Shown: positions 3,830 to 37,066 of the stretch, one piece after another
Position numbering within the stretch: position 1 is the stretch's first letter
How the letters are laid out: every line of letters begins with the position of its first letter
Origin: a virus
DNA: 64,000 nucleotides
IMG/VR virus record: IMGVR_UViG_3300024264_001700
Coordinates: 21,586-85,585 of that record
Strand: one strand, 5' to 3'
Notes under the pieces: generated by a model
Told to the model about the DNA's origin: nothing
Databases searched by the model: none
The model's input: only the letters and a program-made list of their open reading frames with translations
Made by a program: the position numbers and the translations under genes

Positions 3830-5116
3830 ATGGCTTTACGTCTAAGACGAGGAACAGATTCAGAAAGATTATTAATTACACCAGCAGAAGGTGAATTAAT
3901 ATATGCAACAGATACAAAACTACTTTTTGTAGGTGACGGTGTTACAGTAGGTGGTAACGCAGTAGATACTAACACACAAGTTAGTTTAGAAGCAGCATTA
4001 GGCGAATTAAGCATTGATAGCTTCGGAGATGTTAATTCAGATAGTACAATTCCAAATGATGGAGATGTATTAGCATATGATGCTAGTTCAGGAGACTGGA
4101 GAGCAAGTTCAACCGCGGGTGGCGCAGCAACACTAGGCGAATTAACTGATGCAGATACAACAGGTGTTTTAAACGATGATGTTCTTGTGTATAATAGCGC
4201 AACTTCAGCATTTGAAAGAGAAACCTTCCGATTAGAAACATTACGTGATGTTAATTTTACTAACTTAACTAACTCTGTATTAGTATATGATAATGTAGCA
4301 GGTACATTTAATCAAGTAGATTCATTAAACAATAATATTGTAGATGCAAACGGTATTACGATATTAGATGCAAACTTAGCCGAATTTAATGGCGCTTTGC
4401 GTGGTGATATTCTTTCTGAAGATAGTAGTGTTATACTTTCAGTAGGTATCGGTGATACAGATAGCACTTTATTTGCAAATGTAACAGGCAATGTAACTGG
4501 GGACACAAACGGTACACACACAGGTGTAGTAATTGGTAATGTTACTGGTAACGTTGTAGGTGATGTAACAGGAAATGTAACTGGAGACGTTAGTGGTAAT
4601 GTTGTAGGCGGAGCAAGTTCATCAGTTACGACTGAATCTGTTGTAACTGATTTTATTTCTGCTCCTGATAATTCATTACAATTTACTGGCACAGGTGATA
4701 TCAATAGACTAGTTTTTAACAGAACAGAGGCAGGCGCACTTGCAGATGACTCGCCGATAGGCCGTTTAACTTTTGCTAAAACAGACTCAACTGGACCAAC
4801 AACTACAACTATTAGTACATTAGATGTTACAAATGATCACCTGATATATTTCCCACAGCCGGGAGGTTCAGGTAATTCTAGTAATTATTTTAAATTACAT
4901 TCTAATGGTAAAATGCAAATTAGTGTTCCTGGAGCAATTGGTACAGTACCAACAGCAGGTTTAGAAGTTGGTGGATCAATTAAACCAGGGGTCTATGCAG
5001 ATGCTAGTGCAAGAGATACAGCTATTACTGCTCCGACAGCCGGAGAAATGGTTTTTGTAACTGATGTTGCAAAGTTCCAAGGGTATGACGGATCTAGTTG
5101 GGTTAATTTAAACTAA
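3830..5116 (+). CDS. tail fibre-like virion protein with Mtd_N/hyaluronidase-type N-terminus
   Basis: N-terminal LRLRRGT...PAEGELIYATDTKLLFVGDGVT, GDVLAYD repeats, G(N/D)V(T/V) repeats, C-terminal GEMVF...FQGYDGSSW. RBS AGGAG. Confidence 0.8.
   Translation: MALRLRRGTDSERLLITPAEGELIYATDTKLLFVGDGVTVGGNAVDTNTQVSLEAALGELSIDSFGDVNSDSTIPNDGDVLAYDASSGDWRASSTAGGAATLGELTDADTTGVLNDDVLVYNSATSAFERETFRLETLRDVNFTNLTNSVLVYDNVAGTFNQVDSLNNNIVDANGITILDANLAEFNGALRGDILSEDSSVILSVGIGDTDSTLFANVTGNVTGDTNGTHTGVVIGNVTGNVVGDVTGNVTGDVSGNVVGGASSSVTTESVVTDFISAPDNSLQFTGTGDINRLVFNRTEAGALADDSPIGRLTFAKTDSTGPTTTTISTLDVTNDHLIYFPQPGGSGNSSNYFKLHSNGKMQISVPGAIGTVPTAGLEVGGSIKPGVYADASARDTAITAPTAGEMVFVTDVAKFQGYDGSSWVNLN
4478..4609 (+). 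repeat. coding tandem tetrapeptide repeat G-(N/D)-V-(T/V)
   Basis: NVTGNVTGDTNGTHTGVVIGNVTGNVVGDVTGNVTGDVSGNVVG; degenerate 12-nt periodicity. Confidence 0.8.
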
Positions 5117-5823
5117 ACACCTAAAACACTTATTAATTTTATTACATTATCCCAAGTTTTTGGAATATTCATTATTAGATGAATACTTCCATTTGCCCAA
5201 GCATGTGTTCTATGCACTTTAGTTGTGTCAATATAAATTACATTTCCAGGAGTAATCGGCAATCTTCTTCCGTTTTGTTCCCATTCAAATGCTTCGTCAT
5301 CTGTATTATCAAAGAATGCACATATTCTAAAACAATCTCTAGTTAAATATTGATGATCTCTATGTGGTGGAAAATATGCTCCTGCGTCTGCTCTAACTAA
5401 AAATGTTCTTCCTAAAGGTGAGAAATAATCGCAAAGATCATGAATGCTAGTAAGGTCCTTGTATAACTGTGTAGGATAATTAAAATCAGCTTCCATTACT
5501 TTATGTCCTACACGCTTTCTAGCTTCAGGCAAACTTAAACTATCATTACAGTCATCACCTTCTAATCCCCAAAGCATCAATCCATATCTAGGATCAGATT
5601 CACCTTCTCTAGGAAGATAATCAACCCATTTGTCGTTATATGGTTCTATCTCACTATTAAATTTGTCTATATCTAAATTAAAGTTCAACTTAGCATAATC
5701 ACCTAACATTGCTAGTTGCTGTTCGCAATGCATTTGTTCGTCAGTAGGAACAAACATTTTAGAATCGTTTTCGTGCCCACCTATAAAATTGTGCCTAATA
5801 TATTTTTTAAATCTATCTTCCAT
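5113..5823 (-). CDS. 2OG-Fe(II) oxygenase, aspartyl/asparaginyl beta-hydroxylase-like
   Basis: FPPHRDH (HxD), distal His in IDTTKVHRT, HLIMN strand. Confidence 0.75.
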   Translation of the reverse strand: MEDRFKKYIRHNFIGGHENDSKMFVPTDEQMHCEQQLAMLGDYAKLNFNLDIDKFNSEIEPYNDKWVDYLPREGESDPRYGLMLWGLEGDDCNDSLSLPEARKRVGHKVMEADFNYPTQLYKDLTSIHDLCDYFSPLGRTFLVRADAGAYFPPHRDHQYLTRDCFRICAFFDNTDDEAFEWEQNGRRLPITPGNVIYIDTTKVHRTHAWANGSIHLIMNIPKTWDNVIKLISVLGV

Positions 5824-6714
5824 TTATTTCTCCAGTAAAGGCGGATTAAGAGTATATCTGCTAAAAGACGTAGAATATCCTTCCATAGTATTATTATAAG
5901 TTTCATCCTTTTTCATCAAATGAAATGTTATTGCTATTTTCCAATCGCATCCTTTTTTTCTAAAATCTGTCGGTGCGTGTAATACACTTGTATCTTGTAC
6001 AATACCACTACACAATTTCCAGGGCAACACTTCTTCTATACTTAATCCTTCGTATATGCTCATAGGTATGTGTTCAGGCATTTCACGTTCCATCCATGCC
6101 CAGTCTAGTTTATCGTATTCTATACCTTCGACTCCGTACTGCTCATATGGTAATAATCTAAAGGTATTACTGTAGCCGCTAAAATTAGAAATATGTCTAT
6201 TTTTCATAAAATGTGTAGCTCTTCCGCGATAACGTTGATTAAAAGTTACATAATCTATTGATACATTATTATGTATTTCTAATGGTAAAATAATGTCTTT
6301 GTAAGGACGATAGCCAGGAATATGTGTAACACTGTCTGTATGTAACCCATAAGGTCTAATACTTTTAAACATCTGATCACCGACACTCATAGGATCATTT
6401 GAAACTTCGCTGTAAAATACAGTGTCTTCTCCAAAGTGTTCATATACTTTAGACCGTAAAATATCATTTATTACGCTGTAGCGTATAGGGTGCGGAATGT
6501 TTACAATATGTCCATTTATTTCCCAGCCAACATTGTTGTACTCTTTATACCAAAAGTCAAGCAACTGTATACGTTCTTGTTCTGTAATAAAGTTATCTAT
6601 GCTGTAACTAGGCTCGTATTGATCTTTAAAGAACTTAGTGTTAGGATCATGTATAATGTCCATGTTCTTTAGTGTTTCGTCATCAAATGGTTTATTTGCT
6701 TTCATATTTTTCAT
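5824..6714 (-). CDS. putative 2OG-Fe(II)/cupin oxygenase (paralog of 12942-13640)
   Basis: GLHTDS (HxD) and LPWKLCSGIVQDTSVLHAPTDF, matching FPWKIGSIISFDSLDLHSASNF in the paralog. Confidence 0.6.
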   Translation of the reverse strand: MKNMKANKPFDDETLKNMDIIHDPNTKFFKDQYEPSYSIDNFITEQERIQLLDFWYKEYNNVGWEINGHIVNIPHPIRYSVINDILRSKVYEHFGEDTVFYSEVSNDPMSVGDQMFKSIRPYGLHTDSVTHIPGYRPYKDIILPLEIHNNVSIDYVTFNQRYRGRATHFMKNRHISNFSGYSNTFRLLPYEQYGVEGIEYDKLDWAWMEREMPEHIPMSIYEGLSIEEVLPWKLCSGIVQDTSVLHAPTDFRKKGCDWKIAITFHLMKKDETYNNTMEGYSTSFSRYTLNPPLLEK

Positions 6715-7174
6715 TTATAAACCTCCATTGTGTGTCTCCAAATTCATAAAAACTAATACTTATTGCAACTCGTGTATCTGTTATATTATGTACTGCATGA
6801 TTCTTAAATGTATTTAACAAGTACCACTCGTTCTCCTGTTGCGTATAGTTACTCTCAAGTACTTTATCACTGCTGTAAACGCTTGTATGAGCGTCTAAAC
6901 CACCTTTATTAAGTATGTAGTTAATAGCAAACTCACGCCTATCCATATGTATAAGTCCGTTTAATTGCGGATCAATAAACTGTGCAATTATATGAGTTTT
7001 TTTAGGAAAAAAGTCTTTTGGAAATATACTCCTTATTTGCTTATCAACTTCATTGGTTACATAATAAGCAATATATCCTCCGACCTTTGCTTTCAGTTGT
7101 ACATCATTTGTATGCCAGTTTTCTGGTAAGTCTAATTTAGGTAAATTTAATTTCTTATACGTAACTGTGTTCAT
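6692..7174 (-). CDS. putative 2OG-Fe(II)/cupin oxygenase
   Basis: LIHMDR (HxD), AINY, WYLLNTFKNHAVHN, RVAISISF. Confidence 0.65.
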   Translation of the reverse strand: MNTVTYKKLNLPKLDLPENWHTNDVQLKAKVGGYIAYYVTNEVDKQIRSIFPKDFFPKKTHIIAQFIDPQLNGLIHMDRREFAINYILNKGGLDAHTSVYSSDKVLESNYTQQENEWYLLNTFKNHAVHNITDTRVAISISFYEFGDTQWRFINEKYESK

Positions 7175-7961
7175 AATCAAATGCGATCCTATGTAATACC
7201 CTTGTCTTCATATCTGCAAATGTCCATCGTTTGTGTATGCTTAACCATTGTTCGCTAATAACAAGATCGCCATCTTCCCAATCGTGATGCATTATATATT
7301 TCTCTTGCAAAATATGATTTTTAATATAGTTGTATAGTTCAGGCCATTCCTCATTAGTAGCGCCTTCAACTATATCGAATATTTGTAAAAAAGGAAAGTA
7401 TAGTCCTGTAAGATTTTCAATATTTGTTCTGACAATTTTTTGTGGATTATTATAAACCACATTATTTTGGAATATTTCACTTGGACTAAAATTACCTACC
7501 TTATGTCCGCAAGCGACAGTTATACCATTTACTGTTTGTTTTACATCTTCTGGTAGGTCATTATAGGCAAGAACTTGGTTAATCCAGCTAGTTCTACTAC
7601 CTTTAGATCCTCTTTCGCTATATAACCAAACAAACGGCCATCTATTTTCTTCTGTAGGATGATGCGTATGCCAATCTAACTCTATTTCGTGCCCAAATAA
7701 TCCTGGCTCTCCTCTATCATTTAATTCTCCAGTTACTCTTAGCACACCTGGTACGAGACTTAGATTATCTTTTGCTGTAGTGCTTTCGCCTTTATTTGCT
7801 TTTACATTACCCATTACACTAGCAATTCTAAGTTCATCTTCTGGTGTAAGGTTTTGGTTTCTAAATATAACCACTAAATGTTTGTTAATATCTCTTGCAA
7901 CTTGCTTTAGTTCTTCGTCAGACATTGTTTTAATATCTACATCATATTCTTTATGCCACAT
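7155..7961 (-). CDS. TauD/TfdA-family dioxygenase-like protein (HxH instead of HxD)
   Basis: VVIFRNQNLT, LDWHTH, AYNDLP, HDWEDGDLVI..Q..SIHKR, RVLHRI. Confidence 0.85.
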   Translation of the reverse strand: MWHKEYDVDIKTMSDEELKQVARDINKHLVVIFRNQNLTPEDELRIASVMGNVKANKGESTTAKDNLSLVPGVLRVTGELNDRGEPGLFGHEIELDWHTHHPTEENRWPFVWLYSERGSKGSRTSWINQVLAYNDLPEDVKQTVNGITVACGHKVGNFSPSEIFQNNVVYNNPQKIVRTNIENLTGLYFPFLQIFDIVEGATNEEWPELYNYIKNHILQEKYIMHHDWEDGDLVISEQWLSIHKRWTFADMKTRVLHRIAFDYEHSYV

Positions 7962-8481
7962 TTATACATCCCACTAAATTTACTCTATGTTCTTTACTAG
8001 CATTTGCTGCACTGTGCATTTTTGTTGTTTCAGTAACATAACCATAGCCGTCATCTGGAATATTATATAAAACACTTTCTTCTATGTAGTAACAATATTC
8101 ATTTGTAATAATTCCTAATTGACATCTATCTGTCCAGTCTTTATGAGTATTATACACAAATAGAGGTGCTATTCGTAATATTCTTGTTCTTGTTAAATTA
8201 TTTTCAATTATAAATTTTGACATTTCCCATTCTGGCGGAATTAATAACTGCTTAAAAGATTCATTTTGTTTAGTCCATTCCTCTACATCGTTATCGTCCC
8301 AGTGTCGAATATAGAATTTGTCAATATCATAATGTAAATGGTAATCTTCAGTGCCGTCAGTCTGCAAAGTAATTGCATCAAAATGATCTGGTAAGCCTGG
8401 CGTCCAGCCTACTTTTTCTACAAGTTCGGCATATTCAGATTTAATTTTTTTTATATCGTATTGTTTATCTAACCTATACAT
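7951..8481 (-). CDS. 2OG-Fe(II) oxygenase, Asp/Asn hydroxylase-like
   Basis: RTRIL, YNTHKDW (HxD), ETTKMHSAANASKEHRVNLV. Confidence 0.7.
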   Translation of the reverse strand: MYRLDKQYDIKKIKSEYAELVEKVGWTPGLPDHFDAITLQTDGTEDYHLHYDIDKFYIRHWDDNDVEEWTKQNESFKQLLIPPEWEMSKFIIENNLTRTRILRIAPLFVYNTHKDWTDRCQLGIITNEYCYYIEESVLYNIPDDGYGYVTETTKMHSAANASKEHRVNLVGCINVA

Positions 8482-8983
8482 TTAATTCTCCGAATTTTAT
8501 ATCATGTATTCCCATATGAAATACTATACGTTCTTGTGAAGGTGCTTCTACTCCGTGTGGTAATTTTGTGTTAAGTACTGTAAGTGTATCATATACAATA
8601 CTTTCTTTTGTGCCTTCCTCTACATATAATGCACCTGTATTTTTTGTTACAGGAATAAGAAAACTACATTCACTTTTAACATCCACATGTATAGGAAGAT
8701 TGCCTCCTTCTAAAACTCTAAAGAAGTTACATCTAAAATCTCGAGGTCGAATACCAAACTCGTTCCAAAGGCTTTTGATTAATTTTAGTAAAGGTCTATC
8801 AAAATTATGTATTTCTTGTACAAAGAACTTATTCATTTCTTTACCACCTGTTGCATCACTTACATATTCTGAATATAGTTTATTACTATCAGTCCATTCA
8901 CTTGTCATATAGGTCTGCCAAAAAGTTGGATTAACTGTAAAATCAGTAGTAATAAAACTATTTTTTACTTTGTTCTTAAACAT
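8474..8983 (-). CDS. putative 2OG-Fe(II)/cupin oxygenase
   Basis: GGNLPIHVDV (HxD), LNTKLPHGV, ERIVF. Confidence 0.7.
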   Translation of the reverse strand: MFKNKVKNSFITTDFTVNPTFWQTYMTSEWTDSNKLYSEYVSDATGGKEMNKFFVQEIHNFDRPLLKLIKSLWNEFGIRPRDFRCNFFRVLEGGNLPIHVDVKSECSFLIPVTKNTGALYVEEGTKESIVYDTLTVLNTKLPHGVEAPSQERIVFHMGIHDIKFGELNV

Positions 8984-9665
8984 ATAAATCTTCTTGTGTA
9001 AGGCAGCTAATAATCAAATGCCAACGTTCAGTGTTGCCATTGTTCCAGGCACTGTGTTTAAACCCTTGATTTAGAAACCAACATTCGCCAATATCCATAA
9101 AACACTCTTCACTATTACCTTGCTTGTCTGTATTTTTAAATCCGCAATCGCTGTTAGTTTTTAGTGGAATATGATATCTCACAGCATAATCTGTATTGTA
9201 GTCTATGTGAGGCTTGATCGAGCCGCCGGGATGCATAATAGCAATTCTGCATCTAGATTTTTCAGCTATAAAAGTGTTAAGCACTGACTCAAGATATGTT
9301 CCGCTAAGTTGTGGCTTGAGTTTGTTATAGTGTCTTTCATCTGGCCTACTTCCGATTTTCTTAGTGTAATCTATATCAACAGAATCTTTATTAAATTCAG
9401 TAACTCCGACTTGTTTATAGTGGCCTTTTGTCATACCAGATATGTACTCTGTATATTGTCCGATACTAAATGCACGTTCGAGTGTAGGTGCTTTACTACC
9501 TACTACGTCACCGTATCCTCCTTTAATTGTCAAATCGTCAAAAAATACAGATTTACCATCTACAGTTGTATCTTCTAATAATTCAAAGTCTTGAAGTATT
9601 TTTTTTGTGTCAAAAGTATAGGTCAGTTTTTTAAATAGTGGAAGTTCTTCTCTACGCTGTCTCAT
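8976..9665 (-). CDS. aspartyl/asparaginyl beta-hydroxylase-family 2OG-Fe(II) oxygenase
   Basis: RCRIAIMHPGGSIKPHIDY..RYHIPLKTN, GECWFLNQGFKHSAWNNGNTERWHLI. Start moved to ATG 9665, overlapping the upstream stop. Confidence 0.85.
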   Translation of the reverse strand: MRQRREELPLFKKLTYTFDTKKILQDFELLEDTTVDGKSVFFDDLTIKGGYGDVVGSKAPTLERAFSIGQYTEYISGMTKGHYKQVGVTEFNKDSVDIDYTKKIGSRPDERHYNKLKPQLSGTYLESVLNTFIAEKSRCRIAIMHPGGSIKPHIDYNTDYAVRYHIPLKTNSDCGFKNTDKQGNSEECFMDIGECWFLNQGFKHSAWNNGNTERWHLIISCLTQEDLYV

Positions 9666-10195
9666 AATTTGGTACTCGCTTTGTATTGCCAACAACTCGG
9701 CGCTTCTGGTATGCACACACATTGTTTATCATCATGTAAATGCCATTGTGTGTTTGTTTTTTCTTGTATACTAGTAATTAGCTTGCGAAAGTATCTTGGA
9801 CTCCTTTCTCGGCTTATAAATGCACTAGCAAATCCTTGTGCTTTACACATAGCCATTTGATGTTCAATCATTAATATAGTATGCTTTAATCCTAAGTGTT
9901 TCCGAGAATCTGCATGCCTATATTTAGGATTTTTATAATACTTAGACATTATGCGTATTTCACCAGGTTCATAATATTTAGATCTGTGCCATGCTACACT
10001 AAATTCTGCTATATCTTCTTTTACTTTGAAGATACTTATAACTTGAAAATCATTCCAATCTAAATTTTGATAATTTTTACTTAACGGATCAGTTGAACTG
10101 AAATTAATTTTAGAAAGATCGTTAATAAGATCTAACCTTTCGTTAGGAGAAAATGATATTAATGATGAATCTGGATATGGAGCAGATACTATCAT
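9662..10195 (-). CDS. hypothetical protein, possible GNAT-like fold
   Basis: IRIMSKYY..PKYR...MIEHQMAMCKAQGFASAFISRE resembles GNAT motif A/B spacing; weak. Confidence 0.45.
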   Translation of the reverse strand: MIVSAPYPDSSLISFSPNERLDLINDLSKINFSSTDPLSKNYQNLDWNDFQVISIFKVKEDIAEFSVAWHRSKYYEPGEIRIMSKYYKNPKYRHADSRKHLGLKHTILMIEHQMAMCKAQGFASAFISRERSPRYFRKLITSIQEKTNTQWHLHDDKQCVCIPEAPSCWQYKASTKL

Positions 10196-10879
10196 TTAGA
10201 ATTGATACCCGTATTTTTCTAAGTCGTCTTTGAACATATTTTGTATAATATTTCTTGTGTTAGTATTATAATATTTTTTATATGTATCCCTAGTTGAGCT
10301 ATTAGAATGCGACATGCTTATTGATGTGTTAAATAGTTCTTCTAATAATTTAATTTTATTTTTAAGTTCTTCTATTTTTATTACAATATCAATACTATCT
10401 TCAATCCAATAATTTGTTGTCCTGGGTGTGCTATACCAGTTGTTAAATATTTCTGGGTTACGTACATTAGTGTAAGAATTATAAGGACTACTCGATTCGT
10501 TACTATAATCAATTAGCCAATTTTCAAATCCTAAGTCATAGTAATTAGCCATTGCTATATCATCATTATAGATAGAATTTTGTGTTCCGTCGGGGTTAGT
10601 TGGAGTATGTCCTCTTTTCCATATGCTTACTCTGTTTTTTGCATTTTGTCCCATATAATGAAATAAACTTACCATTCTATCATATGGATTTCTTACAAAT
10701 GTAAAAGTTGTGCCTAAGGTTTTCCAAAGTTGTGTTGCTTCACTAAATGTACAATGCTTATATTTCTTAGGTGCATCAAAGACCAAACCAGTTGATTCTG
10801 CCCAGTACAGTAAGCTTGTGCCGCCTGTTCTAGGAATATGGATAAAAGTTACTTTAGGATCAAGAAAGTGTATTGACAT
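10196..10879 (-). CDS. sulfotransferase family 2 protein
   Basis: 5'-PSB FIHIPRTGGTS, 3'-PB FTFVRNPYDRMVSLFHY, C-terminal DLEKYGYQF. Confidence 0.88.
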   Translation of the reverse strand: MSIHFLDPKVTFIHIPRTGGTSLLYWAESTGLVFDAPKKYKHCTFSEATQLWKTLGTTFTFVRNPYDRMVSLFHYMGQNAKNRVSIWKRGHTPTNPDGTQNSIYNDDIAMANYYDLGFENWLIDYSNESSSPYNSYTNVRNPEIFNNWYSTPRTTNYWIEDSIDIVIKIEELKNKIKLLEELFNTSISMSHSNSSTRDTYKKYYNTNTRNIIQNMFKDDLEKYGYQF

Positions 10880-12940: not shown

Positions 12941-12941
12941 A

Positions 12942-14752: not shown

Positions 14753-14758
14753 ATCTTT

Positions 14759-14797
14759 ATATTAGCACCATTTTAGCATTCTGTCAAGATATTTATA
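14759..14797 (-). promoter_or_regulatory. tandem promoters: TATAAATA (14797-14790) and TTGACA-N17-TAATAT (14787-14759), probably leaderless
   Basis: Reverse-strand reading TATAAATAtcTTGACAgaatgctaaaatggtgcTAATATaaagatATG. No Shine-Dalgarno; ATG follows 6 nt after the -10. Confidence 0.65.
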
Positions 14798-14800
14798 AAA

Positions 14801-14808
14801 GATAAATA
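14801..14808 (+). promoter_or_regulatory. putative T4-late-like promoter (gATAAATA) for the nitroreductase
   Basis: 20 nt upstream of ATG 14829, followed by RBS GGGGAGGA. Confidence 0.45.
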
Positions 14809-27071: not shown

Positions 27072-27076
27072 ACTTT

Positions 27077-27105
27077 ATTATACTTTATTTTTTATTGTTT
27101 GTCAA
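27077..27105 (-). promoter_or_regulatory. perfect sigma70 promoter TTGACA-N17-TATAAT, probably leaderless
   Basis: TTGACA 27105-27100, TATAAT 27082-27077, only 5 nt before ATG 27071; no SD. Confidence 0.75.
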
Positions 27106-29655: not shown

Positions 29656-30907
29656 TATATTGCTCCAATATATTGTGAAACTCTGGAAATGTATCTTGAA
29701 AACTTGTGTTTCGAATCTTATCAAGACCTTGAATATAATCTAGGTATTGCGGATATAACTCCGACAAGTCTTCTTGATACATAAAATCTATTTGATGAGA
29801 AATCTTTTCATTCCATTGTTTGTTGTCGGGCAATTTTAAGCTAGCCCATTTGTCTTTTATTTTATCTTTTATTTCTTTAGGAAACATTTGCGTACAAAGA
29901 TATCTCGGCCAATGTACTGTTCCTGCATGGAATAATCCATTATGGTGTCTTATACCTATTTTTTTAAAGTTTTGTTCAAGTAACGATGTAGCAAAGTCTG
30001 GAATATAAAATATATTCATTGCATGTACTGTGCAAAGTATTTTTACTTCAATATTATCAGGTGTATTATCTAATGTATTTAGATTTTCTTGTATAACATT
30101 CCAGTCAGCCGGATATCTCACATAATCATGATGCTTGCCCCAGGCATCCATACTAATCATTAGTTCTACATATCCAAACTCTTTCCAAAGTTCTAATACT
30201 TCTTCTGGCAATACTGTACCGTTTGTATGATATCTTAGATTAATATGCTTACTATGTCCTGTCTCTACAAGTTTTCGTAGCATTCTATGATGTTCTTTTA
30301 TAAGCAGAGGTTCGCCACCGGCAAAAATCATATGACGTATGTTTGCAAACATAGGCTCAAAGTCTTGCCATAGTTTTTCTTTTTTGTACCATTCGAACTT
30401 TGTAGTATCAATTTCTAGTTTGTGCTTCCAATCCCACTTTGCATCTGACTTTAATTCTTCTGCTAGTTTTTTAGCAGGATTTAACCACATACTGCTGTCT
30501 TGAGGCCTACACATCACACATTGTAGATTACAAGTATTGCCTAATCTAAAGTCTAGTGTTACTAAATCTTCTTCGAGTGTGCCGTCTTCTTGTGTAGCTT
30601 CAACTAAACTGTTGATTTTATCCTCGCCTAGTTCTCGTTTCCATAATGTATTTTCATTAATACGATGACTGCGGATGCCTGCTGATTCTTCTTTATAGCA
30701 GTGTTCGCATGCCATGACTTTTTGTCCAGACAACATCTTTTTTCGAGCATCTTTCCAATGTTCGCTGTTCCATATTTCACTTACTGTTTGATCGTTTAAG
30801 TTATGCTTATAACTGTTCTTAGCAACACAGCATAGTAAGGCACTGCCGTCAGTCCATGTAGCCATGTGTGTCCAAGGTAAAACGCAAAATGTTTTCGATT
30901 CAGTCAT
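29648..30907 (-). CDS. radical SAM enzyme with N-terminal twitch/SPASM domain, subfamily A
   Basis: CVLPW..WTDGSALLCC...CEHC, GNTCNLQCVMC, AGGEP. Confidence 0.92.
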   Translation of the reverse strand: MTESKTFCVLPWTHMATWTDGSALLCCVAKNSYKHNLNDQTVSEIWNSEHWKDARKKMLSGQKVMACEHCYKEESAGIRSHRINENTLWKRELGEDKINSLVEATQEDGTLEEDLVTLDFRLGNTCNLQCVMCRPQDSSMWLNPAKKLAEELKSDAKWDWKHKLEIDTTKFEWYKKEKLWQDFEPMFANIRHMIFAGGEPLLIKEHHRMLRKLVETGHSKHINLRYHTNGTVLPEEVLELWKEFGYVELMISMDAWGKHHDYVRYPADWNVIQENLNTLDNTPDNIEVKILCTVHAMNIFYIPDFATSLLEQNFKKIGIRHHNGLFHAGTVHWPRYLCTQMFPKEIKDKIKDKWASLKLPDNKQWNEKISHQIDFMYQEDLSELYPQYLDYIQGLDKIRNTSFQDTFPEFHNILEQYNG

Positions 30908-32021
30908 TTAAATTCCATATCTCTTTAAAAGAAGGTACCATTTCTAAAAAGTTTAAGTTTCGTTCTTTATCTAGACTACTAATATTTTCTTTTACTAGCT
31001 GCCAGCTATCTATTTGATCCTCACTTAATCTTTCGATCGTAACTTTGTAGGGATTATCAATTATAGCATAGTTATAGTCTAAATTCAACCGATTAAATTT
31101 TTCTATAAGATTATGTTTGGTACTACTAGGCAACGAACTTAGTTGTTGCCAATGCGGCCATCTAATCCAATCCCATTCTACCTTCCACAAAGGCAAATTA
31201 TTGTGTATGTAATCTACCAATTTATCTAGTTCTAATACATTAACTAAATTTACTACAGTGTGAATAATAAAATGCACGTTACTTTTATGTTGCCACCATT
31301 CTTCAAATGTTTTAATTATCGAAATACAATCATCAAATTTAGAAGGCCATCTATACCAATCGTTTGCAGTATATATACCGTCCATGCTTACACACAAATA
31401 TACATTATTACATTGTTCGATTAAATCTTTTAGTTCTTGATCAGGTAATATAGTTCCGTTAGTACAAATTTGTAAATTTACTTTAGTTAAATCTAAACTA
31501 CGTAACAGTTTCTTAAATTTAGCACCTTCCATAAAAGGCTCGCCGCCTATAATCTTTAGATCAGTTACATCTAATAAATCCCACTTTTCAAAATCAAAGT
31601 CATTTTTTAAAAATCCCTTTGTTTCTACTCTATTTGCTTTTTTATCTTCAGCTTGCCATTTACTACTAAAAAATCCACTACAATGCGCACATGCTAAGTT
31701 ACATAGATTGCTAAAACTTACTTCTAATTGTTGTACTGGCACAGTTTTATTTTCAGTAGGTGTAAATTTTGAAAGACTATGCTGTCTCATACTGCGTAGG
31801 CCGTTGCGCTCATCTTGATAGCACCCGTGACAACCTTCTACAGATTCTCCAGATAGCATTTTATCTCTAATGTCTTTCCAATGCGCTGTATTACGCACAC
31901 GATCATTCCAAACATAGCTATCTTCTTCGTCAATGTGAGGATATCTACAGCAAGGTATTGTTAAGCCGTTTGGCCTAATAGCCGCTGCAAAAAAAGGATA
32001 TGAACAAATAGTCTTATTCAA
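30900..32021 (-). CDS. radical SAM enzyme with N-terminal twitch/SPASM domain, subfamily A
   Basis: CSYPF..RPNGLTIPCC...CHGC, SNLCNLACAHC, IGGEP; TTG start. Confidence 0.92.
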   Translation of the reverse strand: MNKTICSYPFFAAAIRPNGLTIPCCRYPHIDEEDSYVWNDRVRNTAHWKDIRDKMLSGESVEGCHGCYQDERNGLRSMRQHSLSKFTPTENKTVPVQQLEVSFSNLCNLACAHCSGFFSSKWQAEDKKANRVETKGFLKNDFDFEKWDLLDVTDLKIIGGEPFMEGAKFKKLLRSLDLTKVNLQICTNGTILPDQELKDLIEQCNNVYLCVSMDGIYTANDWYRWPSKFDDCISIIKTFEEWWQHKSNVHFIIHTVVNLVNVLELDKLVDYIHNNLPLWKVEWDWIRWPHWQQLSSLPSSTKHNLIEKFNRLNLDYNYAIIDNPYKVTIERLSEDQIDSWQLVKENISSLDKERNLNFLEMVPSFKEIWNLND

Positions 32022-33303
32022 CGCCTAGTTCCTTTGCAAGTTCAGGAATAGCATCTTTAAAACTTTCGTTTCTAGTCTTGTCTAGCATACGAGTATAATT
32101 TAAAAAGTTTTTCATTAGTGTTTCATGATCTTGATGCTGTTCTTTGCGCATTAGATTAATGATGCCCTGAATTGTAGTTTTAATTCTCGGTTCATTTAAT
32201 AGCTTACCTTGATACGACTCTAAATTAAGTGCAGCCTTTTCTCTAATATGCTGCGGTAGTATTGTTACATCTAAGTAAAACGGATGATCGTTTATCAAAT
32301 AGTCAATGCCAATTGGCCTGTCGTATTTTTCACTAATAGAATCTACATAATATAGCATATTATGACAATCTAAAACATTATAAGTTTGTACAACTGGTGA
32401 AACGTCTAAATTAACATTTTTTAGTTGTGCAATCTTTTGAAAGTTTTCATCAATTTTTTTCCACTTGCTAGGCGAGCGTATATAATCATTTACTTTTTCG
32501 TATCCATCTAGGCTACAATTAATTTTTATGTTAGAAAACTTACTAATTAGACTTAAAAATTTATCAGTTACGTTTGTGCAGTTAATGTTAAAGAATATTT
32601 CAATCTTATCTTGATATCCTGCTGCAACTATTTCTTCCATAAATCTATAATTGTTGTTTATAAGAGTAGGCTCGCCGCCGGTCATATAAACTTTACTTAA
32701 ATTTGGAATAAGACCTATAATCTCATTCCATAAAAAGTTACTATCAAAATTTAAGTCGCTGTCTTTTAAGAAAGTAGGATTTGGTCCCCAGTTATTATTC
32801 CAAAATTCTTTGTATTCTTCACTTTTTTCGTATGAGCTAAAGTGTTCTTTAGCAATTTGACTGCTATTAAACGGATTACACATACGACATTTAAGATTAC
32901 ACAAGTTTCCTAGTCTAAGATCTAAATATACAGGTGGTAATTTTACTTCGTAGTTATTTTCTTTTGCACTATTAATAAAGTTGTGCAGTTCGGGTCCTAG
33001 TCTATTACGCCACTCAGCAGTCATTCTAGTTCTAAAGCTATCTAAGCCTATACTTTCTTGTTTGTAACAATGCTTACACGCTTCTACTTGAACACCGTTG
33101 AGCATATCTTTTCTAGCATTTTTAAAAACTTCACTGTTCCATGCATCTTCTACACTGTTTTTGCCAACCATCATAGGAGATCCATCTGCATTACGTGCAA
33201 AGGCTGTTGGGCCGCTTGCAATACAGCAATAACGCATTTTACCATCAGTGTTTAACATAGTACTAATAAATGGCATAGCACAAAAGGTTTTTGATTTTCT
33301 CAT
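32014..33303 (-). CDS. radical SAM enzyme with N-terminal twitch/SPASM domain, subfamily A
   Basis: CAMPF..NTDGKMRYCC...CKHC, GNLCNLKCRMC, TGGEPT. Confidence 0.92.
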   Translation of the reverse strand: MRKSKTFCAMPFISTMLNTDGKMRYCCIASGPTAFARNADGSPMMVGKNSVEDAWNSEVFKNARKDMLNGVQVEACKHCYKQESIGLDSFRTRMTAEWRNRLGPELHNFINSAKENNYEVKLPPVYLDLRLGNLCNLKCRMCNPFNSSQIAKEHFSSYEKSEEYKEFWNNNWGPNPTFLKDSDLNFDSNFLWNEIIGLIPNLSKVYMTGGEPTLINNNYRFMEEIVAAGYQDKIEIFFNINCTNVTDKFLSLISKFSNIKINCSLDGYEKVNDYIRSPSKWKKIDENFQKIAQLKNVNLDVSPVVQTYNVLDCHNMLYYVDSISEKYDRPIGIDYLINDHPFYLDVTILPQHIREKAALNLESYQGKLLNEPRIKTTIQGIINLMRKEQHQDHETLMKNFLNYTRMLDKTRNESFKDAIPELAKELGVE

Positions 33304-34220
33304 TACTTTTCGATATCTATAAGTTTTCTAGAATTTCTAGATGGATTTTGGTAAACTGATTTAAAGAATTTACTTTGTTGTGCATTCAACGGCTGTTCTG
33401 CAATAGGAATGTTTAGTTCATTAATTAATTTAATTCCATATTCTTCTATTTCATAATCAACATCTTCAATTGATTCGAAAGACACTTTCCATAAATCATT
33501 TAAGTATTCAAAATCTCTCACATTTATAAAATCCCAATCTGTACACATTGTCATATGCAATCCTGCACGGGCGCCGAGAATTGCCCATTCACCATGTTCT
33601 GCATCAGCACCTATCATTAACCAAATATATAAACGTTGTAAATTTTTCCAATGTCCTTTTACTAAATCATATTTGCTAGTACGCACACCTTCGTCCAGCG
33701 TCATCTTAACACCTTCACGGAAACCTGCACGCCATGCTTGCTGCGGTGTTGCATTATTATGCACAGTTGAAAAACAACTATTTTGTTGAATATAATTTAA
33801 ATCCCAACAAAAGTCTACTTGTGCATGTGGATTATCGTCTGGCGCATTTTCATGCGTTTTCATATTAAGAACATAATCTTTAGGCCAACATTTTATGCCG
33901 CCGTTGCCGTACATTAACCCGTTAATTATATTTTTGCCGCACCAACTTATTACACTATTTTCTAAATTAGATAATTGATCAAACGGTATTTCTTGATTTA
34001 TAAACGAACCATCTATTTTATTATCGGCGTCTACTGTAATAAAACGTTCTGTTTCACTTAGTTTTGCACATGCTTTATGCGCTGCATCTGATCCTTCTAC
34101 CCCGTGTACACGTTTAGCCCAAGGAACTTTACTACACAAATCTGCATAGTTTTTTTCTGCATTTGGTTCATCATATGACAAATAAATAATATCACAGTCT
34201 GCTACTCTAAAGTTATTCAT
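33303..34220 (-). CDS. GT-A glycosyltransferase-like protein (paralog of 26388-27071)
   Basis: LSYDEPNAE, RVHGVEGSDAAH, FITVDAD (DxD), YGNGGIK, WRAGFREGVK. Start moved to ATG 34220. Confidence 0.65.
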   Translation of the reverse strand: MNNFRVADCDIIYLSYDEPNAEKNYADLCSKVPWAKRVHGVEGSDAAHKACAKLSETERFITVDADNKIDGSFINQEIPFDQLSNLENSVISWCGKNIINGLMYGNGGIKCWPKDYVLNMKTHENAPDDNPHAQVDFCWDLNYIQQNSCFSTVHNNATPQQAWRAGFREGVKMTLDEGVRTSKYDLVKGHWKNLQRLYIWLMIGADAEHGEWAILGARAGLHMTMCTDWDFINVRDFEYLNDLWKVSFESIEDVDYEIEEYGIKLINELNIPIAEQPLNAQQSKFFKSVYQNPSRNSRKLIDIEK

Positions 34221-35049
34221 TTTGTGCCTTTCTATTACAATCATATGCAACTGTTGTATATATACTTAATTGTTCTAGGTCAGATTCTTGATCAAATATG
34301 AAAGGAATTTTTGCAGTAATTTCTTCTCTTTTCTCTAAAATTAACCATATCAAATTGTCCTTTATGTATAAACCGCCTGTAGGTGTATCTTTCCTATTAG
34401 TAAATACACTATCAATTACAACCTTATCTAAATCAATATCTAAATAATCATTAGTTAAACAATAAATTTTGTTATTGTGAAATACATGATCTCCAGGGTA
34501 GTATACTGAATCTTTTTTATTATCCTTTACTTTAATACCTTTGTATACATGTTCGTCTTTATAATCTTTAGAGGTTTGATAAAGGTCAAACTCTAAAAGT
34601 CTTATTAATTTACGAGGATCATGTCTTTTTGTTATACTACATTTGAAAAGTCTATGATTGCCTATATTCTTCGATATAACAGTATTATAAAACTCTGTGC
34701 CTATCGTAATTTTCCATACTTTTGAGTCAACTATTTGTTCAATTGTAATATCACCGTGTTTTTTAAACAAAATTTCTTTAAAATTATTCCAGTTTAATAA
34801 ATCTTCTGAAGCAGTTTTACTTATTAGTTGATACAATTTATCTTTTTTATTATACTGTACACAAAAATCATTTAGAGATTTTTCTTTTGATTTAATTTGT
34901 TTTTCTTCTAACTCATTAATTTCTACTTTGGAAGTATTTTTATCATTATCGTCAGGTCCAACTTTCCATACATCGCCTGATTTAGTATCATAGTATGCAA
35001 AAGTTTTATTTGGAACTTGTGTATTTTTTATAAGGTCAAGTAGATCCAT
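34213..35049 (-). CDS. hypothetical protein
   Basis: 278-aa ORF overlapping both neighbours; contains YYPGDHVFHNNKIY, similar to the CBM-like repeats of the giant protein. Confidence 0.7.
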   Translation of the reverse strand: MDLLDLIKNTQVPNKTFAYYDTKSGDVWKVGPDDNDKNTSKVEINELEEKQIKSKEKSLNDFCVQYNKKDKLYQLISKTASEDLLNWNNFKEILFKKHGDITIEQIVDSKVWKITIGTEFYNTVISKNIGNHRLFKCSITKRHDPRKLIRLLEFDLYQTSKDYKDEHVYKGIKVKDNKKDSVYYPGDHVFHNNKIYCLTNDYLDIDLDKVVIDSVFTNRKDTPTGGLYIKDNLIWLILEKREEITAKIPFIFDQESDLEQLSIYTTVAYDCNRKAQNE

Positions 35050-35888
35050 TAATTTTCTCGCTTTGATTCATAAAGAGATATAAGTTTATCGTTACAAAAA
35101 TCTTTTTCAGTATAATGAAATATTCCAGTTTGTATATAATTTCCGACAATAAGTTCTACTTCATCATTTACAAAATAGTCAATTCTGTCTTGCCAGGTAT
35201 CTGCTATCTTTTTCCAACCCTGTACATTATTTTTCATATGTGTAAATGTAGGTATACTTATTCTATCATTTGTTACTTGATCTTCGATATTAAGAATTTT
35301 AATAACCAACGATGCTGCTACATCTATACTTAAAAATTTAGGAGTATTCTTTGATATAAATTTAAAATAAAACGCTTCATAGTTATTACAAACTATTTCT
35401 AACATCTTATAAAAATTCATTGCAGTATCACATTTTTTAAAATAATGAAATCCTACATATGTATTAGGTAAGTCATTTAATTGAAATGCCTTTCTATAAT
35501 AACTATTTTGTATACGATCACCTCTATATGTTTTTACATTTTTTACAAAATACAATTCATAATTATTTAAAATTTTCCACCACGAAGAAATGTCTTGTAA
35601 TACAATCATATCAGTATCCATTACAATAGTTTCGTCATATGGTGATGCATGATAAATCTTCCAACGATTTGAAACTTTCCATGTATCATTAACAGCTGAA
35701 TCATTCCAGGGAATATCAATTATTTTATCAAATATATTTTTATAGTTTTTATCTACAGGATCATTTGTAATTAAGCTTACTTTTGTATTAGGATTAGTAT
35801 GTATTATACTTAACGCATTTAAATATGCTTGTTTGACATAGTCGGTTTCATCTGTATTCTGTGCCAACATTACTATGCCCTTAGTCAT
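35049..35888 (-). CDS. GT-A glycosyltransferase (GT8/mannosyltransferase-like)
   Basis: MTKGIVMLA..DYVKQA, SPYDETIVMDTD (DxD), FTHMK. GGAG RBS supports ATG 35888. Confidence 0.75.
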   Translation of the reverse strand: MTKGIVMLAQNTDETDYVKQAYLNALSIIHTNPNTKVSLITNDPVDKNYKNIFDKIIDIPWNDSAVNDTWKVSNRWKIYHASPYDETIVMDTDMIVLQDISSWWKILNNYELYFVKNVKTYRGDRIQNSYYRKAFQLNDLPNTYVGFHYFKKCDTAMNFYKMLEIVCNNYEAFYFKFISKNTPKFLSIDVAASLVIKILNIEDQVTNDRISIPTFTHMKNNVQGWKKIADTWQDRIDYFVNDEVELIVGNYIQTGIFHYTEKDFCNDKLISLYESKREN

Positions 35889-36438
35889 TTTCAAACTCCT
35901 TATTAATAGCCCTACCTAAACTAAATTTATTCATAGCATGAATAGTTAAATCTTTTGTTTTAATAAGTGTATATTCTCCAGTATAATTTTCTTTTTGTAT
36001 TAAAAATATAATCTCATTATTATCTAATTTTATTACAACATCTCTATCTAAAATATGATATAGTCTACCAGATAACGGTGCTGCAAACGTTCCTTTTTGA
36101 AATCCATTCATTATGTGAATAGCAATACTAAAAACAAAATCGTTTCTAAACAGAGCTGGTACTTGATATGAAGATTTATAGTGCCACCAGTTATGTTCGA
36201 TATGTTTAGCTAAATTAAAAAATATGTCATTATTTTTAGTTTTCCTAAAGAAAAATATAGTTGCCCAGTAAAACTCAACACTAGCATCACTTATATGCTT
36301 AAACTCAGATTGATCTCTCCAGTCAGCTAAATCAAAAGAGTCTTTATATATCTGAAAATCTTGTAGGCTAGAAAAGGCTTCCTTTAATTTATCATTACAT
36401 ATTATTATGTCAGTATCCATTACAATTGTTTCGTCATA
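35611..36438. repeat. 28/29-nt direct repeat between the two tandem glycosyltransferase paralogs
   Basis: tcagtatccattacaatagtttcgtcata (35611-35639) vs tcagtatccattacaattgtttcgtcata (36410-36438); both encode YDETIVMDTD. Confidence 0.85.
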
Positions 36439-36723
36439 CGGACTTAACTCATATGACAAAGTTCGAGAATTATTGCGCCATGGAAGTCGATACTGAGATA
36501 AAGAACCGTCAAAATAAGTTTTAATATTTGATTTTAAATTTTCTTCATTTAATTTAATAACATTATCAAAAACTTCAAAAGATTCTGCATAACCTACAGA
36601 ATCTGTCACAACGGATACTGGAAGATCTAAATAAGTTTTACACCTTTTGGCAACAAACGCTGCTTGCTTTACATAATCTACTTTTTCGTTATTATTTGCA
36701 AATAATAATATACCTTTAGTCAT
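35881..36723 (-). CDS. GT-A glycosyltransferase (GT8/mannosyltransferase-like), tandem paralog
   Basis: MTKGILLFA..DYVKQA, SPYDETIVMDTD, FRNDFVFSIA, IHAMNK. Confidence 0.75.
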   Translation of the reverse strand: MTKGILLFANNNEKVDYVKQAAFVAKRCKTYLDLPVSVVTDSVGYAESFEVFDNVIKLNEENLKSNIKTYFDGSLSQYRLPWRNNSRTLSYELSPYDETIVMDTDIIICNDKLKEAFSSLQDFQIYKDSFDLADWRDQSEFKHISDASVEFYWATIFFFRKTKNNDIFFNLAKHIEHNWWHYKSSYQVPALFRNDFVFSIAIHIMNGFQKGTFAAPLSGRLYHILDRDVVIKLDNNEIIFLIQKENYTGEYTLIKTKDLTIHAMNKFSLGRAINKEFEND

Positions 36724-37066
36724 AATCTACTAATTTTTCTACTGATCTTTGAGATTTTAATTTGTTATACTCGGTTAGGTAAGTATTAGATGCAGAAAAG
36801 TATACATCGAGTATATCAACTAAGAAAGAATTTATATTATCTACATTTACAGGTATATTATTATCATCTATTAAAACTGTATTGTCATTGTCGTTTTCAT
36901 TTAATAAATTTACAAAATTTATTAATTCTTTAGTTACAGTAAACTGACATCCATTATAATAATACAACGTATTTTCTATAAATTGTTCATTTAAAATACG
37001 CTTTTGATTTGATAATGTTACCATGTAATTAGAAAAGTTTAGTGCTTTTTCTAAACGCTCGTCCAT
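36716..37066 (-). CDS. hypothetical phage protein
   Basis: GGAG RBS before ATG 37066; first gene after the promoter at 37093-37121. Confidence 0.75.
   Translation of the reverse strand: MDERLEKALNFSNYMVTLSNQKRILNEQFIENTLYYYNGCQFTVTKELINFVNLLNENDNDNTVLIDDNNIPVNVDNINSFLVDILDVYFSASNTYLTEYNKLKSQRSVEKLVDYD

Follow-up and report, generated by a model that had tools for sequence, protein, structure and literature searches.

In a 64,000-nucleotide stretch of DNA from an uncultured marine giant phage (bases 21586-85585 of the 85.6-kb IMG/VR record IMGVR_UViG_3300024264_001700, completeness estimate 22%; hereafter the window) we analyzed an island of 38 densely packed genes that lies between virion genes and encodes radical S-adenosylmethionine (SAM) proteins, oxygenase-like proteins, glycosyltransferase (GT)-like proteins and further tailoring enzymes. 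At a probability of roughly 0.4, we read the island as a cytoplasmic pathway of soluble enzymes that builds and edits a sugar-based decoration, with the phage fibres as its probable acceptor. A set of genes at the fibre side of the island, including a GT8-like pair, recurs behind fibre genes in related phages, and a module of radical SAM, GT-A-like and methyltransferase genes is shared with bacterial chromosomes. Genes are referred to below by the lower coordinate of their open reading frame (ORF) in the window (Table 1).

An earlier note on this DNA had described 38 tightly packed genes, all but one on the minus strand, between virion genes, and both the ORF listing and the count of gene junctions bore this out. 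The island (5113-37078) contains 36 minus-strand ORFs of at least 80 amino acids, one minus-strand ORF of 74 amino acids that occupies its sole large apparent gap, and a single plus-strand gene (14829), giving 37 genes on the minus strand and one on the plus strand. Of the 36 junctions between the minus-strand ORFs of at least 80 amino acids, 31 overlap or abut, and coding sequence makes up about 99% of the span. To the left lies a gene with an Mtd_N domain (3830), which converges on the island and encodes G-[ND]-V-x-G repeats of the Asn/Asp/Thr-repeat type, and to the right lie fibre genes and a baseplate wedge gene. A second viral record from another assembly (G001, 48 kb) matched window positions 3000-22900 collinearly at 90% nucleotide identity, and tblastn located in it both flanks and, in unchanged order, all island genes except for a replaced segment at 23439-25559. 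Furthermore, difference-free contigs from a sequencing run not marked as a possible source of the record covered 26899-33831 and 34137-39466, and the second of these spans the junction of the island and the fibre side. Because of this collinear sibling and of the independent contigs that bridge the junction, a chimeric assembly, which the earlier note had named as something that would undo its proposal, is excluded. Sequence words sampled from 27092-37078 were present in 20 runs from 14 studies, all of them seawater, marine or freshwater metagenomes from 2016-2025, and 18 runs each contained at least half of the sampled words. RNA-library contigs (depth 2-3) also matched parts of the island and one fibre gene; these may stem from DNA carry-over and we claim no expression from them, and the island parts that they leave uncovered carry no meaning.

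The twelve genes that had been taken for radical SAM enzymes were all confirmed by motif, family match and paralogy. Every one of the proteins has a CxxxCxxC motif, nine reach the PF04055 cut-off (29.5 bits), and the other three (21278, 28315 and 30900) score below it but have paralogs among the nine. In seven proteins a Cys-rich SPASM/twitch domain precedes the core, with Pfam SPASM matches at residues 8-114, N-terminal to the Radical_SAM matches; five of these genes (27092-33303) stand in tandem. Six of the seven match the NCBIfam family NF033640 (N_Twi_rSAM, N-terminal twitch) over its full length at 229-423 bits, above its curated cut-off of 170 bits, whereas 19021 falls under it. In an alignment of 15 N-twitch sequences C8, C26, C27, C67 and C70 were invariant, as were C126, C130 and C133 of the CxxxCxxC motif. 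NF033640 is itself only a catalogue entry, and literature searches retrieved no paper on the N-twitch family or NF033640, nor on such islands in jumbo phages. The five other radical SAM proteins fall into two paralog groups (15444/21278/22359 and 13640/16394), and single-sequence searches of the PDB with 13640 and 22359 returned no match. Among solved structures, the N-twitch profile matched best the peptide maturases SkfB (E 3.6e-12) and CteB (E 7.2e-9), and over the core it also matched BlsE (E 1.1e-6), a radical SAM enzyme that acts on a sugar acid. BlsE and the sugar-acting BtrN combine a radical SAM core with an auxiliary Fe-S cluster, as the island proteins would, and have sugars or sugar acids as substrates. 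Their auxiliary domain is C-terminal, however, whereas that of the N-twitch proteins is N-terminal, and the likeness is confined to the common core, with SkfB and CteB scoring better.

Of five genes proposed as GT-like, four were supported (35049, 35881, 33303 and 26388) and the fifth (24167) remained a weak lead, with no Pfam match and no PDB match for its family profile. The profile of the GT8-like pair 35049/35881, built from 27 sequences, matched glycogenin (E 3.5e-6) at profile positions 10-104, and D95 is invariant in it within a D-x-D context. The model of 33303 aligned to GT-A enzymes including B4GALNT1 (Z 10.1, root-mean-square deviation 3.0 Å over 140 residues), and its family has a DxD-type pair in which D76 is invariant and D74 nearly so. 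The top Foldseek match of this model was A64R of chlorovirus PBCV-1, a weak one (E 1.3e-4, TM 0.27-0.37), and the 33303-family profile had no match in the PDB. The models thus suggest a GT-A-like fold for the 33303/26388 family, an assignment made by fold only.

The 74-amino-acid protein encoded at 23946 keeps 72-78% identity in loci where the adjacent genes show 38-73%, and its homologs include 58 cluster representatives at E ≤ 0.001. Protein P0159 carries it as a C-terminal fusion to a 26388-type protein (41% identity, E 1e-56). We considered this ORF as a precursor of a peptide made on the ribosome and modified after translation (RiPP) and rejected it, because conservation along its whole length and the natural fusion mark an enzyme part rather than a substrate; by these features it probably belongs to the 26388-type enzyme as an accessory part. 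A predicted complex of the 74-amino-acid protein with radical SAM protein 22359 scored 0.00 against a mark of 0.32, a result that speaks neither for nor against binding.

We then compared the island with its relatives. A single N-twitch query retrieved 1504 homologs and 79 viral loci, and the best 78 genome loci were compared alongside; counts across the viral loci are lower bounds, since each locus was truncated at 10 kb or where its contig ended. Two genus-level relatives, G004 and G005 (40-75% amino acid identity), carry an island at the same site with content that differs from that of the window. G005 matches both flanks, and G004 matches the fibre-side flank with an island that runs to the end of the contig. 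In the window, G001, G004 and G005 alike, a conserved site between the same flanks holds variable content. Kept in G004 and G005 are 36716, the GT8-like pair, 33303, the N-twitch genes 32014 and 29648, 26388, the methyltransferase gene and a 16394-like radical SAM gene. Relatives of the two GT8-like genes occurred in 32 and 31 of the 79 viral loci, of 36716 in 15, of 33303/26388 in 41 and of the methyltransferase gene in 37, while the sulfotransferase and most genes of the left block were found in 0-3 loci. The most widely occurring oxygenase gene of the island, 10860, has relatives in 34 viral and 7 genome loci. Furthermore, eight GT8-containing loci extend more than 5 kb upstream, and in all eight a gene of a fibre family lies within 6 kb; the two paralogous genes that stand between fibre and cassette in the window (37133 and 38395, for which no Pfam or PHROG match was found) are co-conserved in 11 of 79 viral loci. 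The prediction that GT-like genes would form a syntenic core while radical SAM and oxygenase content varies therefore held for the GT-like genes, which stay behind the fibres, and for the variation, but two N-twitch radical SAM genes belong to the core as well. The physical tie between the tailoring pathway and tail-fibre genes that had been proposed is thus supported by synteny in relatives. Among annotated phages, Ralstonia phage RsoM2USA has one and Vibrio phage K566 four N-twitch-like genes, labelled only 'hypothetical' or 'radical SAM' and without the GT8 cassette in the stretch examined, and Vibrio phage K567 carries N-twitch genes as well; when 20 kb of the island was searched by megablast, none of 50,697 phage records matched.

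The segment replaced in the sibling bears on the substrate. In the window this slot (23439-25559) holds 25011, 24167 and 23431, and in G001 it holds three other genes and a gene of the UDP-glucose/GDP-mannose dehydrogenase family (locus L173, 17362-18483; PF03721 E 5.6e-19, PF00984 E 1.2e-16). Relatives of this dehydrogenase gene (52-100% identity) lie within a few kb of N-twitch genes in seven related viral loci, counted beside L173, the G001 copy having supplied the query. Its presence in the sibling slot and near N-twitch genes of relatives is the most direct sign that these islands act on activated sugars.

The best 78 genome loci with N-twitch genes belonged mostly to Bdellovibrionota assemblies; locus L129 comes from an assembly of Halobacteriovorax marinus. 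A Bdellovibrionota host for the phage is a tempting assignment, though a speculative one. Five Bdellovibrionota genomes picked from these loci contained 8-19 copies each, often in tandem, compared to none in 14 control genomes, and in an even sample of the phylum 26 of 121 genomes had an NF033640 member above the cut-off. A module made up of 25559, 26388, 17613, 22359 and 13640 recurs in Bdellovibrionota at 40-66% identity, and its bacterial neighbours include a full-length gene of the fatty-acid-desaturase family, an Asp_Arg_Hydrox protein and a B12-binding radical SAM protein. The GT8-like pair and 36716 were present in 0 of 78 genome loci, and a search for the Collar domain in the five Bdellovibrionota genomes was negative (0/5). 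By homology, phage and cells have the editing chemistry in common, and the fibre-side front of the cassette is phage-specific. One small Bdellovibrionales chromosome (G009, 1.9 Mb; loci L116, L120 and L153) has 16 N-twitch genes, arrayed in tandem with as many as 7-8 copies, and transposase-like ORFs flank some of them. Two loci in metagenome-assembled genomes assigned to Gammaproteobacteria (L096) and Chloroflexota (L149) consist of packed genes on one strand with 53-84% identity to island genes, and may be jumbo-phage contigs mis-binned into bacterial assemblies.

The remaining enzymes of the island are more diverse. Eleven oxygenase-like proteins had been claimed; eight were supported, whereas for 5824, 12942 and 6692 the HxD...H motif is all that suggests such a function. 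Of the supported proteins 5113 and 7951 score below the Pfam cut-offs yet are backed by paralogy. A profile comparison with AspH-like proteins by hhalign gave 0.3-34% for the three motif-only proteins, with 5824 at 0.3%, and the atlas matches of 5824 were viral hypothetical clusters only. In both TauD-family proteins the carboxylate that binds iron in the H-x-D...H motif is gone, replaced by His in 7155 and by Asn in 11419 (the WHCN of which aligns to WHSD of PDB entry 5j92), with the distal His region kept; from these replacements, the two proteins may bind metal differently, act in a halogenase-like manner or be non-catalytic. The labels sulfotransferase, desaturase and nitroreductase were confirmed by Pfam, the QueC-like label of 20316 was supported by its PP-loop, C-terminal Cys motif and weak PHROG match, and the methyltransferase label of 25559 was confirmed by fold only. 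Nearly all Foldseek matches listed for the 25559 model (the top 48 ranks of at least 500 with E ≤ 0.001) were SAM-dependent methyltransferases, with a top E of 3e-7, and the sugar methyltransferases MtmC, RebM and KijD1 were among them; the 25559-family profile had no PDB match. The kinase-like label of 23431 retained a weak PHROG match but no PDB match in a single-sequence search, which was likewise negative for 9662, and no island gene gave a GNAT-like signal as had been claimed. Pfam and PHROG scans left 14 island genes without a match (5824, 6692, 8474, 9662, 12942, 24167, 25011, 25559, 26388, 33303, 34213, 35049, 35881 and 36716). In agreement with the earlier note, no nonribosomal peptide synthetase (NRPS), polyketide synthase (PKS), transporter, nucleotide-sugar synthase or DpdA was matched among the 38 genes in family scans.

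The best minus-strand promoter matches fall in the few non-overlapping junctions of the island. The genes 26388, 36716 and 13640 each have a near-perfect sigma-70-type pair only 5-14 nt before the start codon, a spacing that would give leaderless or very short-leader mRNAs, and in relatives the -35/-10 pair of 36716 returns in 4 of 10 distinct upstream regions, the surroundings of which have diverged. As counts, neither promoter-like matches (93 vs 99.8 and 121 vs 110.6) nor terminator-like matches (12 vs 8.9 and 6 vs 7.5) were above shuffled sequences, and what is notable is solely where the best ones are placed. A promoter match for the 74-amino-acid ORF (24198-24169) was rejected, as its -10 hexamer overlaps the start codon of the ORF.

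Beyond the island, the baseplate wedge is about 33% identical to that of jumbo phages of the Atu_ph07, Phosso, SCTP-2 and PA5oct type, and adjoining it is an ORF of 5248 amino acids (45486-61232, minus strand), the greater part of which is conserved in the relative G004 at 43-45% identity. To the left of the island are a DUF2201 metallopeptidase/VWA-like protein (930-2294, plus strand; E 1.4e-40) and a fragment of an AAA-type ATPase, both kept in G001 and G005 as the left anchor of the island. Further upstream on the contig, 5-21 kb before the window and beside a family B DNA polymerase gene, are genes at contig positions 617-2113, 13549-14136, 15405-16142 and 16136-16741, encoding a carbamoyltransferase (PF16861, E 2e-53), a phosphoribosyltransferase, a GTP cyclohydrolase I (FolE) and a weak GDSL-like hydrolase. 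No tRNA genes were found in the window, and a terminase search of the contig was negative.

Table 1. Genes of the island and its flanks, and candidate promoters, in window coordinates.
Coordinates	Strand	Feature	Basis
3830-5116	+	fibre-like protein, left flank	Mtd_N domain, Pfam PF18454 E 2.6e-10
5113-5823	-	AspH/cupin-like double-stranded beta-helix protein	Cupin_2 E 0.0023, below cut-off; paralog of 10860, E 5.5e-8
5824-6714	-	unclassified; oxygenase-like by motif only	BLASTP E 9e-11 to 12942
6692-7180	-	unclassified; oxygenase-like by motif only	hhalign 34%; no Pfam/PHROG match
7155-7961	-	TauD-family	PF02668 E 1.8e-26; WHTH, H-x-H replaces H-x-D
7951-8481	-	Asp/Asn beta-hydroxylase-like, weak	PF05118 E 0.0023, 18.2 bits, below cut-off
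8474-8983	-	AspH-like by profile comparison	hhalign 73%, E 3e-5, 78 columns
8976-9722	-	Asp/Asn beta-hydroxylase family (Asp_Arg_Hydrox)	PF05118 E 9.8e-16
9662-10195	-	unclassified	no Pfam, PHROG or PDB match; 34% relative in G005
10196-10879	-	sulfotransferase (Sulfotransfer_2)	PF03567 E 3.1e-8
10860-11435	-	Asp/Asn beta-hydroxylase family (Asp_Arg_Hydrox)	PF05118 E 1.9e-14
11419-12396	-	TauD-family	PF02668 E 8.9e-31; H-x-N replaces H-x-D
12374-12952	-	short membrane di-iron desaturase/hydroxylase-like	PF00487 E 4.4e-7, 30.4 bits vs 29.7-bit cut-off
12942-13640	-	unclassified, paralog of 5824; oxygenase-like by motif only	BLASTP paralogy
13640-14752	-	radical SAM	PF04055 E 7.5e-14; 64-84% identity in other loci
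14759-14787	-	sigma-70-like match upstream of 13640	TTGACA-17-TAATAT with TG, 10/12; consensus match only
14829-15443	+	nitroreductase-family, sole plus-strand island gene	PF00881 E 1.1e-8
15444-16397	-	radical SAM, C-terminal SPASM	PF04055, PF13186; paralog of 21278 and 22359
16394-17623	-	radical SAM	PF04055 E 1.9e-11
17613-19037	-	N-twitch radical SAM	NF033640 422.8 bits
19021-20319	-	divergent N-twitch-like radical SAM	NF033640 145.5 bits, below cut-off
20316-21281	-	PP-loop ATP pyrophosphatase, QueC-like	SGGADS PP-loop, C-terminal CGECFWC; phrog_1550 E 9.5e-5 (weak)
21278-22396	-	radical SAM/SPASM-type	CxxxCxxC; PF04055 22.4 bits, below cut-off; paralogy
22359-23438	-	radical SAM/SPASM-type, module common to bacteria	PF04055 E 4.6e-7; 45-78% relatives
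23431-23949	-	unclassified	phrog_3297 E 1.1e-5, no single stretch passes; no PDB match
23946-24170	-	conserved 74-amino-acid protein	38/74 columns invariant in 5 sequences
24167-25027	-	unclassified, weak GT10 (fucosyltransferase) lead	atlas scores 0.80-0.81 to GT10 clusters
25011-25556	-	AspH-like by profile comparison	hhalign 81%, E 1.2e-5
25559-26434	-	class I SAM-dependent methyltransferase fold	model pLDDT 78.8; no family match
26388-27071	-	GT-A-like nucleotide-diphospho-sugar-transferase fold, short paralog of 33303	35% identity to 33303; family model
27077-27105	-	perfect sigma-70 match upstream of 26388	TTGACA-17-TATAAT, 12/12; consensus match only
27092-28318	-	N-twitch radical SAM	NF033640 304.7 bits
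28315-29724	-	N-twitch radical SAM	NF033640 309.3 bits
29648-30907	-	N-twitch radical SAM	NF033640 394.6 bits
30900-32021	-	N-twitch radical SAM	NF033640 229 bits
32014-33303	-	N-twitch radical SAM	NF033640 356.1 bits
33303-34250	-	GT-A-like protein, helical C-terminal domain, core gene	model pLDDT 89, pTM 0.88
34213-35049	-	unclassified, close relatives only	3/79 loci; no Pfam/PHROG match
35049-35894	-	GT8-like (glycogenin-like), paralog of 35881	profile vs PDB
35881-36723	-	GT8-like (glycogenin-like), paralog of 35049	profile vs PDB
36716-37078	-	conserved 120-amino-acid protein, first core-cassette gene	14 invariant columns in 10 sequences; no Pfam/PHROG match
37093-37121	-	sigma-70-like match upstream of 36716	TTGACA-17-TATACT, 11/12; consensus match only
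37133-38329	-	between fibre and cassette, paralog of 38395	30% identical to 38395
38395-39318	-	between fibre and cassette, paralog of 37133	30% identical to 37133
39329-40843	-	fibre with Peptidase_G2/IMC (intramolecular-chaperone) end	domain scans
40892-42793	-	tail-fibre gene	N-terminal domain common to all three fibres
42795-44858	-	fibre with Collar domain	domain scans
44862-63928	-	phrog_11259 protein, 5248-amino-acid giant protein, baseplate wedge	right flank

In the pathway that we propose, the GT8-like and GT-A-like proteins would transfer nucleotide-activated sugars, with a UDP-sugar dehydrogenase supplying uronic acid in the sibling phage. Twitch/SPASM radical SAM enzymes would edit unactivated C-H positions, for example by epimerization, oxidation, decarboxylation or C-methylation, and hydroxylases of the iron/2-oxoglutarate type, the methyltransferase, the sulfotransferase and the QueC-like enzyme, acting as an amide-forming enzyme, would attach further groups. 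Fibre or fibre-associated proteins would be modified in this way in the cytoplasm before lysis, and 37 of the 38 island proteins have no hydrophobic segments, the exception being the desaturase-like 12374 with three; no transporter, flippase or polymerase family was matched. We infer the sugar substrate and the order of the steps from gene content and predicted folds: a sugar-based product, as the earlier note had suggested, is indicated by the GT-type proteins, the fold neighbours of the methyltransferase, the sulfotransferase with its carbohydrate-type family, the PP-loop enzyme, the hydroxylases and, most directly, the dehydrogenase gene of relatives. The fibres are the most likely acceptor because 36716 and the GT8-like pair, which form the front of the cassette and are specific to phages, always stand behind fibre genes.

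Several observations weigh against this reading. The match of the GT8-like pair to glycogenin is confined to about 95 of 271 profile positions, none of the GT-like island genes matched any Pfam GT model, and the Z score of about 10 for 33303 is moderately above the tool background of 7-8, with the nucleotidyltransferases IspD and MobA at about 9. No nucleotide-sugar synthase was found in the window. SPASM/twitch radical SAM enzymes are best known from peptide maturation, and the solved structures that the N-twitch profile matches best are peptide maturases. A lipid or lipopolysaccharide (LPS) target would likewise be compatible with the membrane desaturase-like gene and with the PF05118 family, which includes the lipid A hydroxylase LpxO. 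Furthermore, the recurrence of the module in Bdellovibrionota, with no Collar domain in the five genomes searched, means that the chemistry does not need phage fibres, and we infer a fibre or fibre-associated protein as the most likely acceptor from position. Finally, the candidate promoters suggest that the island may consist of several transcription units of its own and not be a run-on of the fibre operon.

Virus-encoded glycosylation of virions has precedents in A64R of chlorovirus PBCV-1 and in the capsid and tail glycosylation of mycobacteriophages. Like the island as we read it, A64R-type systems use cytoplasmic virus-encoded GT-A enzymes on virion proteins, and A64R is itself the weak structural match of 33303. 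We know of no radical SAM editing in virion glycosylation of chloroviruses or mycobacteriophages. The designation 'undescribed' in the earlier note did not hold, since comparable islands have been published (PMC7029224), hydroxylase/sulfotransferase/collar neighbourhoods have been predicted (PMC2938197) and NF033640 is catalogued. In Zaragoza-Solas et al. (2020; PMC7029224), a host recognition cluster (HRC) is described for pelagimyophages and cyanomyophages, in which GT8 is the commonest GT family and is read as modifying the host O-chain. Like such clusters, the island is large, hypervariable, placed in the structural region and read from its genes, with tail fibres, GT8-type and non-fibre genes together. 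The HRC, however, was established for T4-like phages, where it lies between the VrlC gene and gp14, and its GTs are read as acting on the O-chain and not on the virion, whereas the baseplate wedge of the present phage is nearest to non-T4 jumbo phages and its island carries 12 radical SAM genes. Radical SAM proteins of marine pelagimyophage genomes are also reported in that paper, as is an Asp/Asn beta-hydroxylase core to all pelagimyophages, and neither is placed in the HRC. Iyer et al. (2010; PMC2938197) predict beta-hydroxylase/sulfotransferase/tail-collar neighbourhoods and describe an array of 10 dioxygenases in Syn9. The left block of the island (5113-13640) resembles these neighbourhoods in having PF05118, TauD-type and sulfotransferase genes beside fibres, one of them with a Collar domain. 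It differs in that the neighbourhoods of that study are bacterial or cyanophage and without radical SAM arrays, and in that the TauD-type proteins of the island are without the metal-binding carboxylate. The island type is thus already known in kind, and its interest lies in its chemistry and not in its rarity.

Several other readings share part of this evidence. The enzymes might remodel the host envelope during infection, altering LPS core, O-chain, lipid A or another surface glycolipid and thereby blocking superinfection or keeping progeny from adhering to debris, which we regard as somewhat unlikely. The O-chain interpretation of GT8-rich islands in PMC7029224 favours it, as do the GT8-like genes, PF05118 hydroxylases, membrane desaturase-like gene and sulfotransferase of the island, the sigma-70-type matches before three sub-blocks, which fit transcription by the host polymerase, and the homologous modules of bacterial chromosomes, which must serve a cellular structure. 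However, family scans of the 38 genes revealed no membrane-associated initiating transferase, flippase, polymerase or ligase, a single island protein has hydrophobic segments, and the GT8-like pair and 36716 are missing from all 78 bacterial loci yet stand directly behind phage fibre genes. Fibre or fibre-associated proteins might instead be modified directly and without a glycan, by radical SAM cross-links, epimerizations or methylations in the manner of RiPPs or anSME and by beta-hydroxylation followed by sulfation. PMC2938197 predicts that beta-hydroxylase and sulfotransferase act on co-encoded tail-collar or collagen-like proteins, a Collar fibre and the Asn/Asp/Thr-repeat gene flank the island, and SkfB and CteB are the nearest solved radical SAM enzymes by profile. 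Direct modification is nevertheless unlikely, as it leaves four GT-type genes and the nucleotide-sugar dehydrogenase of relatives unexplained, and as the same radical SAM subfamilies occur in bacteria without fibre genes. RiPP clusters are recognized by a short precursor with a variable core, usually together with a RiPP recognition element (RRE), protease or exporter; the island showed neither a leader/core-type precursor nor any of these companions, its family matches included no peptidase and no transporter, and the sole small ORF is the 74-amino-acid one, conserved throughout and fused elsewhere to an enzyme.

A diffusible or intracellular small molecule, such as a cofactor, antibiotic or signal, that benefits the infected cell and is unrelated to the virion would suit the high conservation of the shared module (13640 at 64-84% identity), which fits a defined small substrate, as well as the nitroreductase and desaturase-like genes, and secondary-metabolite synthesis was proposed for cyanophage dioxygenase arrays in PMC2938197. 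It is very unlikely, since no NRPS, PKS, terpene or ATP-grasp scaffold enzyme and no exporter was matched among the island genes, the position behind the fibres is conserved, and four GT-type genes indicate transfer onto an acceptor. DNA hypermodification, in which the island would extend an upstream pathway to 7-deazaguanine or another base, with the QueC-like gene filling a missing step and the other enzymes decorating the base, draws on the PP-loop and QueC-like C-terminal Cys motif of 20316 and on two genes 5-8 kb before the window, one for GTP cyclohydrolase I (E 1.7e-38) and one for a phosphoribosyltransferase. Yet Pfam, PHROG and NCBIfam scans of the 38 genes matched no tRNA-guanine transglycosylase/DpdA, DNA glycosylase, DNA glycosyltransferase, 5-hydroxymethyldeoxyuridine or other DNA kinase, or DNA-binding family, and a scan of 10 upstream ORFs at E ≤ 0.001 confirmed neither DpdA nor QueE. 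Furthermore, relatives of 20316 are located in bacterial radical SAM clusters, up to three per locus, and not in queuosine loci, and the conserved neighbours of the island are fibre genes and not replication genes, which makes this explanation extremely unlikely.

A bolder version of our preferred reading, a glycan built and edited for the fibres, joins the phage and bacterial observations, although we consider it decidedly unlikely as a whole. Jumbo phages and predatory Bdellovibrionota would share a radical SAM chemistry of glycan editing, in which arrays of position-specific N-twitch enzymes rewrite C-H bonds of an assembled sugar chain; the phage product would coat the fibres via a phage-only, GT8-type attachment, and phage and bacterium, both predators of Gram-negative cells, would each have a variable, enzyme-resistant adhesion or stealth coat, with the panel of paralogs serving as a generator of host-range diversity. 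If the preferred reading holds, tailed phages would assemble and then radical-edit a glycan on their own receptor-binding apparatus, and host range would have a layer that is not visible when fibre-gene sequences are compared. The N-twitch radical SAM family, with its 1504 homologs and up to 19 copies per picked Bdellovibrionota genome, would gain a first function. Islands of this type are common in aquatic jumbo phages, with 79 viral loci compared here, so that one biochemical result would annotate very many genes and, even if rival readings such as remodelling of the host surface prove correct, the island is a large reservoir of putative radical chemistry.

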